A DNA stretch of 64,000 bases from Escherichia coli (GTDB lineage: Bacteria > Pseudomonadota > Gammaproteobacteria > Enterobacterales > Enterobacteriaceae), in NCBI RefSeq assembly GCF_045037415.1, contig NZ_CP173438.1; one strand, 5' to 3'. Below the pieces are notes generated by a model. The model did not search any database. It was not told where the DNA came from and worked only from the letters and a program-made list of their open reading frames with translations. Within the stretch, counting starts at the first letter, position 1, and the number at the start of each line of letters is the position of its first letter. Below, in pieces: positions 24,589-33,147 of the stretch. A program made the translations under genes and the position numbers.

Positions 24589-25476
24589 TTAAGATTCAGG
24601 TGTAAATTGCCAACGAGTTTCGATGACCAGCGGCTTATCTGGTGTCACAAATTCCGGCGTTAGATTTATTGCGTTAGGTGCCTGAGTCAGCGGGTTAATA
24701 CAGGTGGCATCGGGCTGTTTATCAAATACCACCAGACTGTTTGCAGAAGAGGTCATGGTCATCGCGAGTTTACCAGGCCACAGTAACTTAACCTTCACCC
24801 CGTCATAAAAACCAAAACAGTCATCCCAGGGACCAACTTGAGGAGAGATACGATTTCCAGTTGGCAGTTCATCACTACCCGCTTCTTCTTGCCAGTCCGC
24901 ATCAAAAAGCACCTGCAACGATTCTGTATTTTGCGGAGTCAGCTTTTTCGCAAACCACGGATGCCAGCCTGCGGAGGCCGGGAATGTATCGGCATATGAA
25001 TGGACTTCCAGTTGCAAAACCAGCGCATCGTTCTCCAGCAAAAAAGTCTGAATCACTTCCCCTTGCCAGGGCCACGGTGAAGTCAGGGGCATACGTAAAG
25101 TCAGGGAATCTGCTGTTTTGTCGATGATTTCCCACGTTGAGTAACAAGCCATACCATGCAACGCATGTGGTGGTTTATTGGCGGGTAAAGAATAACATTG
25201 CCCACCAGCATTCAGCGTCGCATTCCCCAGTCGCCCTGCCCACGGCACCATTGGGAAACAGCCATACTGAAAAGCTCTGCGCTGCGGCTGCCATTGGCGT
25301 AATACTTCAGAACCAAATGCCTTTAACGAGGTTATCCTGGCACCATCATGCGGATAAATCTGCAGGTGAATATTGCCTTTTTCCAGCGTCACTAACTCTC
25401 CTACAGGCCCAGGCCATGGCGCGTCAAACGCCTGTTGTAGCGCCAGGTAATGCTCGTTTTTTCGTTCAGTTTTCAT
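24589..25476 (-). CDS. Aldose 1-epimerase-family (YihR-like) protein; start uncertain (ATG 25476 with agggaa RBS preferred; alternatives 25521, 25533)
   Basis: GWHPWF-type segment resembling mutarotase fold; preferred start overlaps upstream MFS stop. Confidence 0.65.
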   Translation of the reverse strand: MKTERKNEHYLALQQAFDAPWPGPVGELVTLEKGNIHLQIYPHDGARITSLKAFGSEVLRQWQPQRRAFQYGCFPMVPWAGRLGNATLNAGGQCYSLPANKPPHALHGMACYSTWEIIDKTADSLTLRMPLTSPWPWQGEVIQTFLLENDALVLQLEVHSYADTFPASAGWHPWFAKKLTPQNTESLQVLFDADWQEEAGSDELPTGNRISPQVGPWDDCFGFYDGVKVKLLWPGKLAMTMTSSANSLVVFDKQPDATCINPLTQAPNAINLTPEFVTPDKPLVIETRWQFTPES

Positions 25477-26815
25477 GAGATTGTTCCCTGATGTAGCGGT
25501 AAGAAGCGGTTTCTTGTTCATCGGTTGGCTCAATCAGCCAGACGCAAACAAAGGAAAGAACTGAGACAGCAAATAAAAACAGAGCGACATACCACGGTTT
25601 TCCTCCCCCTAGCGCCAGCAAACTTGAGGCGATAAGGGGGCTTAGTCCGCCAAGAATCGCGGAAAATTGATAAGCAAAAGAAAGGCCGGTATATCGTACT
25701 TTGGTACCGAACATGCGGGTGAAAAGTGTTGGCTGCACGGCAAACATCATCGTCGGACCTAAGTTGTAGCCAAGGATCATACTGCACCAGATGATGAGCG
25801 TACTTTTGCTATCCAGTAATAAGAAGAAAGGAAACGCGAACAGGACACAAAACCCTGCTCCCGACAAATACAGACTTTTTTGACCTATACGATCTGATAA
25901 CCATCCAACCAATGGACAACTGAAAATACCGATCGCCGAGGCAATCAACATACCCGTCAGGGGAATATCTCGCGACAATGCTAATTGGCTGGAAATATAG
26001 ACAATACCAAAGGCGTTAATAATATTAGAGGAGACACTTTCCGCCAGCCTCGCACCCAGTGCCAATAAAATATTTCGTGGATGTTTTTTGAATAATTCAA
26101 TCAACGGAGGAACGGACTTTTCTTTATTATTCGTCGTTTTTTGCTTTTGAAAATCCAGCGTTTCTTCGGTATGCAGGCGGATAAACAGCCCAACGATCAA
26201 CATCACCGCAGAAAGCCAAAACGGAATGCGCCATCCCCAGGAGAGAAACTGCTCCGAAGTAAGAAAATGGTTACAGAGAGCAAAAATACCGGTTGCCAGC
26301 ATAATACCCACAGACGCAGCCGTTTGCGGGAGTGAACCTAAAAATCCGCGTCGGGATTCGGGCGCTGATTCTATGGTCATCAATGCCGCTCCGCCGTACT
26401 CGCCACCAAGACCAAAGCCCTGAATTAAACGTAGCACCATTAATATGAGCGGTGCCCAGATCCCAATTTCCTGATACGTCGGAATAAAACCAATCAAAAA
26501 TGTGGAGCAACCGACAATAGCCAACGTCCAGATAAGCGTTATTTTTCGCCCTATTTTATCGCCAAAATGACCAAAGACGATGCCACCTAAAGGACGAGTC
26601 AGAAAACCGACACCAAAGGTCGCAAAGGAAGCTATAAGACCTATAAAAGGATCGCTGTCTGGATAAAACAGCGGTGCAAATACCAGTCCTGCTGCCGTGC
26701 CAAAAATAAAGAAGTCATACCATTCCATTAACGCGCCTGCGAAACTGCCCATAACGACACGTCTCATGGCTTTACCGGAAAGCCCTTCACGCGGTGCGGG
26801 TAACTTTTCAGACAT
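25466..26815 (-). CDS. MFS transporter, metabolite:H+ symporter (MHS)-like
   Basis: 449 aa, about 12 TM; EWYDFF motif after TM1; aggagagg RBS. Confidence 0.85.
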   Translation of the reverse strand: MSEKLPAPREGLSGKAMRRVVMGSFAGALMEWYDFFIFGTAAGLVFAPLFYPDSDPFIGLIASFATFGVGFLTRPLGGIVFGHFGDKIGRKITLIWTLAIVGCSTFLIGFIPTYQEIGIWAPLILMVLRLIQGFGLGGEYGGAALMTIESAPESRRGFLGSLPQTAASVGIMLATGIFALCNHFLTSEQFLSWGWRIPFWLSAVMLIVGLFIRLHTEETLDFQKQKTTNNKEKSVPPLIELFKKHPRNILLALGARLAESVSSNIINAFGIVYISSQLALSRDIPLTGMLIASAIGIFSCPLVGWLSDRIGQKSLYLSGAGFCVLFAFPFFLLLDSKSTLIIWCSMILGYNLGPTMMFAVQPTLFTRMFGTKVRYTGLSFAYQFSAILGGLSPLIASSLLALGGGKPWYVALFLFAVSVLSFVCVWLIEPTDEQETASYRYIREQSHEN

Positions 26816-26876
26816 AATTTTCCTCTCCTGGTAGGCGAGAAATCTGGGATACGAACCACTAAACGTGGGCAGTTTG

Positions 26877-26913
26877 AATTAATGCGCATCGGCTTAAACC
26901 GATGCGCATTAAA
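26877..26913. other. Perfect palindrome aattaatgcgcatcgg cttaaa ccgatgcgcattaaatt abutting the MFS stop codon
   Basis: Direct reading; intra-operon stem-loop between the two MFS genes, no clear U-tract. Confidence 0.5.
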
Positions 26914-31250: not shown

Positions 31251-31422
31251 GAATACTCTCCTGTCTGACATTGACAAAATAATGACAATTGAAAATTCGT
31301 TTTCGTCTGTTTTTGAGCATATTTGTAATTTATGTTCAAAAACACGACACGCATCACTAATTTGATCATTTGTGTCATTTAAATTGACCAAAGACGACAA
31401 AATTAAACAGGACAAGACAAAT
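31251..31422. promoter_or_regulatory. Divergent AT-rich control region between reductase operon and kinase-regulator operon
   Basis: 172-bp intergenic region between divergent starts with several tgt...aca-like half-sites; likely DeoR/CRP operators. Confidence 0.5.
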
Positions 31423-32319
31423 ATGACCAGAATTGCATGCGTGGGTATCACAGTTCAGGACAGAATTTATTCTTTGCCCACTCTGCCGGAGGGTGGCGGG
31501 AAATATCAGGCAAATCATTATCTTGAGATTGGTGGCGGCCCGGCAGCAACAGCCGCTGTTGCAATCGCAAAGCTTGGCGTGGAGGTTGATTTCATCGGTC
31601 GCGTCGGCGATGACAGTTGTGGAAATACCTTACTTGCAGAACTTGAGGGTTGGGGCGTCAATACCGCATTTTGCCGCCGATATCCTAACGCCCGTTCGTC
31701 GCAATCAGCGATCCTCGTTGATCAGCATGGCGAACGGATTATCGTTAATTATCCAAGTCCTGATCTCGGTACTGATGCCGAATGGTTAGAAGCGATCGAT
31801 TTCTCTCGTTATGATCTGATTCTGGCCGATGTTCGCTGGCATAGCGGTACTGAAAAAGCATTCTCGCTAGCGCGCCTTGCGGGTGTGACAACGCTTTTAG
31901 ACGCCGATATGACACCGCAGGATATTTCTCCACTTGTCGCGCTTGCCGATCACGCCGTGTTCTCAACACCAGGGCTGAAACGCATGACTGGCCTGCAGTC
32001 ACCTGAAGAAGGTTTGTTCCAGGCAACGACACAAACAGCAGGTAAAGTGTATGTTACGCTGGGTTCTGAAGGATCGTTGTGGATTGAAGATGGTCATTTG
32101 TGTCAACAGGAGGCATTTTCTGTCAATGTGGTTGATACCACTGGAGCAGGCGATGTTTTTCACGGCGCACTCGCGGTAGCGTTGGCAGAAAAAATGCCAA
32201 CAAAAGAGGCTATTCGTTTTGCCAGTGCGGTTGCCGCGATGAAATGTACCCAGCCTGGCGGTCGGGCCGGCATTCCTAATCGTGAGCAAACCGAATCATT
32301 TTTGTCACTTTATGCGTAA
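31423..32319 (+). CDS. PfkB-family sugar kinase, YihV-like
   Basis: 298 aa; GG ... DTTGAGD motifs of ribokinase/PfkB fold. Confidence 0.85.
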
Positions 32320-32358
32320 AATGGTAAACATCTACCGAGGAGGGGCAAGGGAGTATTC

Positions 32359-33147
32359 ATGAGTATCATCGAAGTGACAGGTAATCCACGCCATGACCAA
32401 CTCGTTCATCTAATCGCAGAACGCGGTTATATGAATATTGAAGAACTGGCACAACTGCTGGATGTTTCAACGCAAACCGTGCGCCGGGATATCCGAAAAC
32501 TCAGTGAGCAGGGCTTGATCACCCGTCATCATGGAGGGGCCGGGCGCGTCTCCAGCGTCATGAATACCGCTTTTGAGCAACGGGAACTTTCGCTCACCGC
32601 CGAGAAACGGGCGATCGCTGAGGCAGTCGCCGATTACCTTCCCGAACGCTGTACCGTCTTTATCACCATCGGTACAACCGTAGAAGCCGTTGCCAGGGCA
32701 TTACTCAACCGGCGTGATTTACGCATTATCACTAATAGCCTGCGTGTGGCACAGATTCTTTATAAGAATCAGGATATTGAAGTGATGGTGCCGGGAGGCA
32801 CTTTACGCGCTCATAACGGTGGGATTATCGGCCCAGGAGCCGTGGATTTTATTGAAGGCTTCCGCGCAGATTATTTAATCACCAGTATAGGTGCCATTGA
32901 ACATGACGGCACCCTACTGGAATTTGATGTCAATGAAGCGTTAGTCGCGAGAACGATGATTAAACATGCGCGGAATACATTGTTAGTGGCCGATCATACG
33001 AAGTTTACCGCGTCTGCTGCCGTTTCAATTGGCAATGCACGGAATGTCAGGGCTTTTTTTACTGATGCCCCGCCTCCCAATTCTTTCTGCCAGTTGTTAA
33101 GTGAAGAGAATGTTGAACTGGTGGTTGCCGAGCAAGAAGTATCCTGA
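32359..33147 (+). CDS. DeoR-family transcriptional regulator, YihW/CsqR-like
   Basis: 262 aa; N-terminal HTH (IEELAQLLDVSTQTVRRDIRKL) and DeoR C-terminal sensor domain. Confidence 0.88.
   Translation: MSIIEVTGNPRHDQLVHLIAERGYMNIEELAQLLDVSTQTVRRDIRKLSEQGLITRHHGGAGRVSSVMNTAFEQRELSLTAEKRAIAEAVADYLPERCTVFITIGTTVEAVARALLNRRDLRIITNSLRVAQILYKNQDIEVMVPGGTLRAHNGGIIGPGAVDFIEGFRADYLITSIGAIEHDGTLLEFDVNEALVARTMIKHARNTLLVADHTKFTASAAVSIGNARNVRAFFTDAPPPNSFCQLLSEENVELVVAEQEVS

Follow-up and report, generated by a model that had tools for sequence, protein, structure and literature searches.

The interval between yihX and typA of Escherichia coli, which in K-12 houses the cluster of Embden-Meyerhof-Parnas-type sulfoglycolysis (sulfo-EMP) for the catabolism of sulfoquinovose (SQ), holds in the 64,000-nucleotide stretch analysed here (NZ_CP173438.1; hereafter the window) a unit of eight genes in which the gene for a zinc-dependent dehydrogenase (Zn-DH) occupies the role-slot where K-12 has the isomerase gene yihS. 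The best explanation of the whole of the evidence, to which we assign a probability of about 0.5, is a variant sulfo-EMP pathway whereby a polyol-type, NAD-dependent Zn-DH makes 6-deoxy-6-sulfofructose (SF). The narrower claim that the processing of a sulfonated substrate runs through SF-1-phosphate is in our judgement likely, and the specific alditol substrate put forward below is held with less assurance than the pathway as such. Four of the genes have homologues in the known sulfo-EMP core, and a 2025 paper has already reported the E. coli allele; the unit of eight genes with Zn-DH in place of an isomerase, spread from Enterobacteriaceae to Streptomyces, appears to be undescribed in the literature searched.

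Gene content of the locus

Homology to K-12 ends at positions 24516 and 33200 of the window, and the eight genes between these breakpoints (Table 1) replace the K-12 interval from yihL to yihW. Their order, strands and content were seen in the open reading frame (ORF) list and in the RefSeq annotation of a strain with 100% identity, just as an earlier note made from the sequence alone had described them; the K-12 order which that note had given (typA-yihL-yihM-yihN-ompL-yihO-P-Q-R-S-T-U / yihV-csqR-yihX) proved correct when checked against K-12, so that the contrast between the two loci is real. Inside the interval only the core from yihT to csqR can be aligned; its DNA identity is 65-67%, and it is inverted with respect to the flanks. 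At the protein level (blastp against K-12) the aldolase is 67% identical to YihT, the reductase 72% to YihU, the kinase 67% to YihV and the regulator 72% to CsqR, the epimerase-like protein reaches 27% identity to YihR over 164 aa, and neither Zn-DH nor the two transporters of the major facilitator superfamily (MFS) have a K-12 yih counterpart. The question raised at the outset, whether these proteins are near-identical orthologues of an already characterised pathway, thereby receives a divided answer, since half of the locus is homologous to such a pathway at 67-72% identity and the other four genes are not. A tblastn search of the whole 64 kb with all K-12 yih proteins found no homologue of YihS, YihQ, YihO, YihP, OmpL or YihL/M/N, in agreement with the earlier observation that the locus has no isomerase, no family 31 glycoside hydrolase (GH31), no glycoside-pentoside-hexuronide (GPH) transporter and no porin.

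The genes are tightly packed, with gaps of 24-98 nt and an 11-nt overlap between the epimerase-like gene and that of the 449-residue transporter (MFS-449). Some gene starts differ from those first proposed: the left-hand start at 25533 belongs to the longest TTG-initiated ORF, the annotated start being 25476, and the longest ORFs of the reductase (to 31451) and of the kinase (from 31372) overrun the real starts.

Enzymes of the proposed lower pathway and regulatory DNA

Crystal structures of YihV, YihT and YihU have defined where these enzymes bind the sulfonate and the sugar, and all three discriminate against phosphate analogues (Sharma et al. 2021; PMC8006165). In the kinase of the window all eight mapped YihV residues are identical, including the K27-N109-R138 triad for the sulfonate, D13 and S95 as sugar ligands and the catalytic D244 of the GAGD motif. 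The aldolase (YihT numbering) retains the Schiff-base lysine K193 and the pocket residues A26, S226, S227 and R253, the lysine and the pocket being likewise conserved in all module aldolases of other phyla. The reductase keeps the R123, N174 and S178 pocket of YihU, bears the RefSeq name yihU and scores 583 bits on the NCBIfam equivalog NF012005 (sulfolactaldehyde 3-reductase), for which the cut-off is 348. Judged by these features, the three proteins are predicted to be a sulfofructose kinase (triad and GXGD Asp), a class I sulfofructose-1-phosphate aldolase (Lys193, Arg253/Ala26) and a sulfolactaldehyde (SLA) reductase. Given that the sulfonate-pocket residues are conserved and that the reductase stands above its equivalog cut-off, the lower half of the pathway, i.e. 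the conversion of SF to SF-1-phosphate, its cleavage to dihydroxyacetone phosphate (DHAP) and SLA, and the reduction of the latter to 2,3-dihydroxypropanesulfonate (DHPS), is very probably unchanged. The joint logic of kinase, aldolase and aldehyde reductase which the earlier note had recognised is thus borne out at the level of residues; of the two substrate classes it had offered, sulfo and 6-deoxy sugars, the conserved pockets and the reductase score now favour the former over the latter.

The divergent region between the reductase and kinase genes contains direct repeats (AAACACGACA / AAAGACGACA / AAACAGGACA), an inverted repeat (TGTTTTTGAGCATA / TATGTTCAAAAACA) and recurrent GACA-type motifs, and can be aligned with the K-12 yihU-yihV intergenic DNA, with invariant blocks common to both. 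Electrophoretic mobility shift assays have shown that the regulators of strain Nissle 1917 and K-12 each bind the other's DNA (Kaznadzey et al. 2025; PMC12608037). A terminator-like hairpin with a T run lies at 33162-33190 on the plus strand, 3' of the regulator gene and just inside the breakpoint at 33200. The 98-nt gap between the two MFS genes holds a perfect palindromic hairpin with a 14-bp stem (TTAATGCGCATCGG...CCGATGCGCATTAA, positions 26879-26912). The transcribed strand has no T run there, and we therefore rejected the hairpin as an internal terminator of the classical kind; it could be an element of RNA processing or stability, or a protein-binding site.

The dehydrogenase and its partners

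Zn-DH belongs to the polyol-dehydrogenase branch of the zinc-dependent medium-chain dehydrogenases/reductases (Zn-MDR). The catalytic zinc ligands C42/H64/E65/E149, the structural Cys4 set (C94, C97, C100 and C108) and the GxGxxG motif (G173/175/178) are invariant in its family, the Pfam domains ADH_N and ADH_zinc_N are present in its homologues, and a near-invariant Glu ends the second Rossmann strand. In enzymes of this class a Glu at that position points to NAD+ over NADP+, and its presence suggests that Zn-DH likewise uses NAD+. The AlphaFold2 model (pLDDT 90.7) matches sorbitol, L-idonate and threonine dehydrogenases at template modelling (TM) scores of 0.8-0.88. The neighbours of Zn-DH by sequence or structure, at 22-28% identity, comprise RspB, YdjJ, the threonine, sorbitol and L-arabinitol dehydrogenases, L-idonate 5-dehydrogenase, galactitol-1-phosphate 5-dehydrogenase and the (S)-DHPS dehydrogenase HpsP, all of them enzymes acting on secondary alcohols that commonly adjoin a terminal CH2OH. 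No named NCBIfam equivalog is matched (in bits/cut-off: YdjJ 165/376, IolM 149/450, Tdh 139/380, IdnD 125/469). The family itself is tight, with 55-94% identity across phyla and next relatives at 45% or less. Three arginines, R117, R271 and R274, are invariant in the family and are not found at the aligned positions of RspB or ketose reductase; they may form an anion site. A dehydrogenase in the stead of the isomerase had at first been taken to suggest a sugar alcohol or another substrate, and the presence of Zn-DH together with the lack of YihS in the window is consistent with that suggestion.

The comparison set outside the window comprises 17 related loci. In 15 of them an orthologue of the 477-residue transporter (MFS-477) stands directly downstream of Zn-DH, the exceptions being two Prauserella loci; orthologues adjoining Zn-DH are 64-91% identical. 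Its NCBIfam matches are weak only, and we propose MFS-477 as the substrate importer. MFS-449 scores 410 bits on the NCBIfam shikimate transporter model and 407 bits on that of the metabolite:H+ symporter (MHS) subfamily, both under cut-off, and its orthologues within the same module in other phyla are 56-88% identical; it would carry an organic anion, either exporting DHPS or importing the substrate.

The epimerase-like protein matches Pfam Aldose_epim (PF01263) at E=5e-22, the match being limited to residues 28-213, and its nearest PDB entry is 3nre. The catalytic residues of the mutarotase HsSQM are His92/His162/Glu254. Both histidines are kept, and the position of the catalytic Glu is occupied by Asn ('AVEPM' in YihR, 'CINPL' here). 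The Asn recurs in the orthologues of Citrobacter, Phytobacter, Vibrio, Sutterella and an alphaproteobacterial metagenome-assembled genome, and Glu is retained in those of Rhodopseudomonas, Budvicia and Pleomorphomonas. Three residues upstream of this position stands an invariant Asp. The Streptomyces, Jejubacter and Prauserella versions of the module lack the gene altogether.

The module in other bacteria

Members of the Zn-DH family are hosted by Enterobacterales, Vibrio, Sutterella, Alphaproteobacteria, Streptomyces and Propionibacteriaceae. The module (DeoR regulator, PfkB kinase, aldolase, Zn-DH, MFS, reductase, MFS, with or without the epimerase-like gene) was found in Citrobacter, Phytobacter, Budvicia, Vibrio and Sutterella, and also in Rhodopseudomonas, Pleomorphomonas, Streptomyces and Propionibacteriaceae. 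The scan of contigs used generic peptide patterns and mostly returned generic polyol dehydrogenases, about 10 of 80 loci being true members of the family. Wherever the contig is long enough, Zn-DH is accompanied in the 17 related loci by DeoR, PfkB kinase and aldolase genes, and usually also by genes for the reductase of the 3-hydroxyisobutyrate dehydrogenase (HIBADH) type, an MFS-449 orthologue and an epimerase-like protein. No yihS or yihQ homologue lies within 10 kb in 13 related loci, and no isomerase Pfam family was present in the eight loci with Pfam annotation. An aldose reductase linked to the module, as a polyol route from SQ would suggest, was considered and rejected: an aldo-keto reductase (AKR) adjoins in a single one of the 17 loci (the metagenome locus L092), and there is none in the window.

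The core conserved across phyla consists of the aldolase, Zn-DH and the two MFS transporters (56-74% identity), together with the epimerase-like protein (46-55%). For the kinase, reductase and regulator there are two lineages unrelated to each other, one YihV/YihU/CsqR-like in Gammaproteobacteria and the other a set of about 30% identity in Alphaproteobacteria and Actinobacteria. The reductases of this second lineage score about equally on the tartronate-semialdehyde and SLA reductase models; that of the Vibrio module, like the one in the window, stands over the SLA-reductase cut-off.

Two displacements within the module bear on its function. In Vibrio, Budvicia and the metagenome loci L091 and L092 the aldolase is of class II instead of class I; the one in Vibrio has HpSqiA and YaSqiA, both experimentally proven class II sulfofructose-1-phosphate aldolases, as its top PDB matches (E=1.7e-108, versus 4e-72 for AgaY) and carries the hallmarks Q51/H83/A257. 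Such a replacement of one aldolase by a non-orthologous one points to SF-1-phosphate as the intermediate. In Jejubacter an aldehyde dehydrogenase stands where the others have the reductase, a swap that parallels the known choice of sulfo-EMP pathways between a reductase and a dehydrogenase (SlaB) for SLA (January 2026 review). The Jejubacter version may be an oxidative, sulfolactate-forming variant, or it may serve another substrate; searches of NCBIfam and of PDB, the latter with too strict a threshold, gave the enzyme no specific assignment as SlaB-type. Taken together, both displacements speak for splitting SF-1-phosphate and disposing of SLA as the conserved function.

The Jejubacter calystegiae locus (L089) has a further peculiarity at 12571-15329, where an MR_MLE enolase-superfamily gene and the aldehyde dehydrogenase gene, beside the Zn-DH/MFS pair, stand where other versions have the genes for the reductase, the second MFS and the epimerase-like protein.

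Allele frequency and selection in E. coli

Of 5426 complete E. coli genomes, 1325 have the whole locus at a coverage of at least 80% and 1327 have its allele-specific half (epimerase-like gene to Zn-DH), the latter always at an identity of at least 95% over at least 80% of the length; 3879 have the half specific to K-12, which runs from ompL to yihS. The locus thus exists as two near-exclusive alleles that jointly cover 96% of the genomes, the window type being carried by roughly one E. coli genome in four. With hardly an exception the core is accompanied by the four extra genes (1325-1327 genomes).

Against Citrobacter sp. R56 the ratio dN/dS ranges from 0.016 (Zn-DH) to 0.091 (epimerase-like gene), with 0.035 for MFS-449 and 0.038 for MFS-477, values that are approximate as dS is near saturation; for the DeoR gene dN is 0.050 and dS is not computable. 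In dS the locus genes resemble the flanking yihX, a housekeeping neighbour that is less conserved than Zn-DH. The genes are clearly constrained by strong purifying selection, and the window-type allele is old at this chromosomal position. It has at least two sub-variants, as yihLMN is retained beside the regulator gene in some E. coli with the same cassette (H4, H5; e.g. NZ_CP151004) and in Citrobacter; the window represents the one that lost yihLMN. At 33148-33254 these three genes are gone, the regulator gene abuts typA, the two terminators stand back to back and the breakpoint falls at 33200.

Insertions were also encountered. In at least one strain, E. coli AVS0747 (H1, NZ_CP124467.1), an IS4-like ISVsa5 is inserted in the transporter part of a window-type locus, and ISVsa5 also disrupts a K-12-type cassette in another strain (H21).

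Table 1. Features of the yihX-typA interval of the window (gene coordinates from the annotation by the NCBI Prokaryotic Genome Annotation Pipeline, PGAP)
Feature	Coordinates	Strand	Remark
yihX	23849-24448	-	flank
Epimerase-like protein, 295 aa	24589-25476	-	last operon gene
MFS transporter, 449 aa (MFS-449)	25466-26815	-	MHS (ShiA/KgtP-like) family
MFS transporter, 477 aa (MFS-477)	26914-28347	-	sugar-porter / aromatic-acid symporter-like
Zn-DH, 336 aa	28417-29427	-	polyol/aldonate-dehydrogenase branch of medium-chain dehydrogenases
Class I (LacD/YihT-type) aldolase	29460-30347	-	predicted sulfofructose-1-phosphate aldolase
HIBADH-type reductase	30372-31250	-	first operon gene; predicted 3-sulfolactaldehyde reductase; YihU orthologue/xenologue
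Divergent promoter/operator region, 172 bp	31251-31422		between reductase and kinase genes
PfkB kinase	31423-32319	+	predicted 6-deoxy-6-sulfofructose kinase
DeoR-family repressor	32359-33147	+	CsqR/YihW homologue
typA	33255-35078	-	flank

Neighbouring regions

Three further stretches of the window deserve a brief record. The fdhE-fabY interval (about 16100-21500) is unlike that of K-12, which has yiiE and yiiF there; a strain that matches 22000 of 22001 bases is annotated there with two ribbon-helix-helix genes, one gene for a DUF6708 protein, a pair that includes nadS, an alpha/beta hydrolase gene and hypothetical genes. The GC content of the interval falls to 0.42 at 20000-20500. Between rhaM and fdhD lie a carbohydrate porin gene (7056-8450, minus strand) and a DUF3829 pseudogene fragment (8804-9358), as annotated in strain Esc20, which is identical there. 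Finally, matches of 35-115 nt to K-12 intergenic DNA downstream of yihN and near yiiF occur at 5603-5641, 5789-5824 and 39795-39897 and are probably repeats of the repetitive extragenic palindromic (REP) type.

Discussion

The locus is almost certainly the same allele as the 'short yih cassette (yihTUVW)' which Kaznadzey et al. (2025; PMC12608037) described from Nissle 1917, B2 and many pathogenic strains as occupying the K-12 position in reversed orientation in a minority of strains, with a YihW 72% identical to that of K-12. The cassette was defined there as four genes, truncated, whose role in SQ catabolism has probably been lost, whereas the unit of the window comprises eight genes and is conserved beyond E. 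coli; the genes for Zn-DH, the MFS transporters and the epimerase-like protein go without mention in that paper, and its supplement lists no expression data for them. The allele as such had therefore been in print before the earlier note drew attention to it, though without the four extra genes and under the opposite functional reading. No variant with a zinc dehydrogenase figures in the January 2026 review of SQ catabolism, the class II aldolase survey, the sulfofucose paper or the 2026 environmental survey. A literature search for new 'sulfo-' pathway names gave nothing relevant, its coverage being incomplete, so that absence is not proof, and neither did partly ill-targeted searches that combined SQ with polyol enzymes or with extraintestinal pathogenic E. 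coli (ExPEC) and Citrobacter.

In the pathway that we propose, an MFS importer would supply the substrate to an NAD+-dependent, polyol-type Zn-DH, which would oxidise the secondary alcohol beside a terminal CH2OH to give SF, both assignments deriving from protein family and gene context. The PfkB kinase would then phosphorylate SF, the class I aldolase would split SF-1-phosphate into DHAP and SLA, the YihU-type reductase would yield DHPS and one of the MFS transporters would export it, with the CsqR-like DeoR repressor governing the divergent promoters and the epimerase-like protein in an accessory role. The simplest substrate would be 6-deoxy-6-sulfo-D-glucitol (that is, 1-deoxy-1-sulfo-L-gulitol), or its mannitol counterpart, with oxidation at C2 giving SF. 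SF is apparently what the kinase requires, and Zn-DH is the sole candidate for making it in every locus, hence the choice of an alditol-to-ketose conversion. A Zn-MDR enzyme combined with a PfkB kinase is, moreover, the common logic of alditol pathways, and the proposal also agrees with the architecture of the E. coli ydj cluster.

Several observations weigh against this proposal. In Nissle 1917 yihTUVW was not induced by SQ, and its regulator shows weak DNA binding at 37 C and only weak release by SQ (PMC12608037). The mutarotase-like gene suits an aldose better than an alditol, Zn-DH is at most 28% identical to any characterised enzyme, and a full-text literature search by name found no natural sulfo-alditol. 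The alphaproteobacterial and actinobacterial module kinases are without the K-N-R triad and the reductases without the N174/S178 pocket, so that beyond the Gammaproteobacteria the case for sulfonate specificity is carried by the aldolase and by co-conservation. As a test these pocket residues were discarded, since proteins of a different lineage at about 30% identity are uninformative in either direction.

The same data may be accommodated in other ways. SQ itself could be the substrate, turned by Zn-DH into SF with the help of the mutarotase-like protein and without an isomerase, either through a redox-neutral, NAD-dependent aldose-ketose conversion (C2 oxidised, C1 reduced) or with Zn-DH catalysing the latter half of a polyol route for which the aldose reductase gene would lie elsewhere. 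Nissle 1917, which carries the allele and has no homologue of yihO/P/Q/R/S anywhere, nonetheless reportedly grows on SQ about as well as K-12, although this growth is slow and was recorded without mutants; and SQ dissociates the Nissle regulator from DNA in vitro, if weakly (PMC12608037). Weak binding of the repressor at 37 C could leave the operon constitutive and thereby mask induction, which would account for the lack of differential expression. SQ is also the only abundant sulfosugar known in gut, soil and sea, and most versions of the module have a mutarotase-like gene; that gene is, however, missing from several of them, and its product in the window has Asn in place of the catalytic Glu. 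The polyol route is further burdened by the lack of a module-linked aldose reductase, and the isomerisation of an aldose is not known from any Zn-MDR enzyme. All in all, we regard SQ as an unlikely substrate of the pathway, albeit the chief alternative.

It is less probable still that the substrate is not sulfonated at all, e.g. a 6-deoxy-hexitol or an aldonate, the likeness to yihTUV reflecting ancestry only; L-gulonate, for example, would be oxidised to fructuronate, phosphorylated, cleaved to DHAP and tartronate semialdehyde and finally reduced to glycerate. Aldonate 5-dehydrogenases are indeed among the relatives of Zn-DH (L-idonate 5-dehydrogenase; RspB), the automatic annotation of JGI labels members of its family L-gulonate 5-dehydrogenase, MFS-449 comes from a carboxylate-carrying family, and both the ambivalent scores and the missing triad of the second enzyme lineage, as well as the absence of induction by SQ, would fit. 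This view must however contend with the intact sulfonate-specific residues of three window enzymes that have diverged to 67-72% identity and whose K-12 counterparts discriminate against phosphate analogues, with reductases above the curated SLA-reductase cut-off in both the window and Vibrio, and with substituting class II aldolases of the SqiA type rather than the fructose-bisphosphate or tagatose type (as judged for Vibrio by PDB match). Least probable by far is a decaying or rewired remnant, i.e. a truncated yih cassette with four unrelated neighbours, which is essentially the published interpretation and has in its favour the missing transcriptional response to SQ, the weaker regulator binding and the loss of SQ function suggested in PMC12608037. 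Eight intact and tightly packed genes with dN/dS of 0.016-0.091, four of which follow the core through well over a thousand genomes and are co-conserved with kinase, aldolase and reductase across three phyla, do not constitute a truncated remnant.

Were the proposed variant pathway functional, the host-adapted quarter of E. coli, including Nissle 1917 and many extraintestinal pathogens, would have a different entry for sulfosugars, which would explain the published growth of Nissle on SQ without yihS and without induction of the cassette. The proposal predicts a new activity, that of a sulfosugar-specific zinc polyol dehydrogenase, and may predict a new natural metabolite. If the redox conversion of SQ were true, roughly one E. 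coli strain in four (Nissle 1917 and many ExPEC among them) would be overlooked SQ degraders and DHPS producers, and so would Citrobacter, some Vibrio, Sutterella, Rhodopseudomonas and Streptomyces; if an alditol were the substrate, there would be an unrecognised natural pool of reduced sulfosugars (6-sulfo-hexitols). That the module constitutes a seventh, isomerase-independent sulfosugar route on either of these grounds is a tentative idea which we would, for the present, sooner doubt than endorse. Catalogues such as the January 2026 review and environmental surveys recognise sulfo-EMP clusters by their isomerase, a match to which the 2026 environmental survey demands, and would therefore miss a Zn-DH module entirely.

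Relation to known systems

A close relative of the locus is the sulfo-EMP cluster of K-12, which lies in the same slot between typA/yihLMN and yihX and has homologous kinase, aldolase, reductase, repressor and regulatory DNA. The K-12 cluster has in addition YihS, the sulfoquinovosidase YihQ, the GPH transporters YihO/YihP and OmpL, all of which are lacking in the window, where a polyol-type Zn-DH, two unrelated MFS transporters and an epimerase-like protein distant from YihR are found instead. A sulfoquinovosidase and a system for the uptake of SQ or SQ-glycerol are usual components of such clusters, though not universal ones. The mixing of non-orthologous enzymes for the same steps is shared with the hybrid sulfo-EMP1/2 clusters that contain SqiA (PMC10665668); these, in contrast to the module described here, all contain an SQ isomerase (PF07221, the family of YihS, or PF02952, that of SqvD).

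In its architecture the module resembles the ydj cluster of E. coli K-12 (ydjE-L), which comprises a DeoR regulator, the PfkB kinase YdjH, the class II aldolase YdjI, the zinc dehydrogenases YdjJ/YdjL, two MFS transporters and an AKR, and with which it has the combination of Zn-MDR, PfkB, aldolase, DeoR and two MFS in common. YdjJ is the best NCBIfam match and a top structural match of Zn-DH, yet at only about 26% identity and 165 versus 376 bits. YdjH and YdjI prefer ketoses with an anionic terminus; the ydj substrates end in a carboxylate and not in a sulfonate, and the cluster lacks a HIBADH-type reductase. A further parallel is offered by HpsP (PDB 8wwd), which is 26% identical to Zn-DH, acts on a C3 substrate and belongs to a pathway of DHPS racemisation and oxidation; it is a Zn-MDR enzyme for the oxidation of a sulfonated polyol at its secondary alcohol, and it thereby illustrates that this fold accommodates a polyol bearing a sulfonate.

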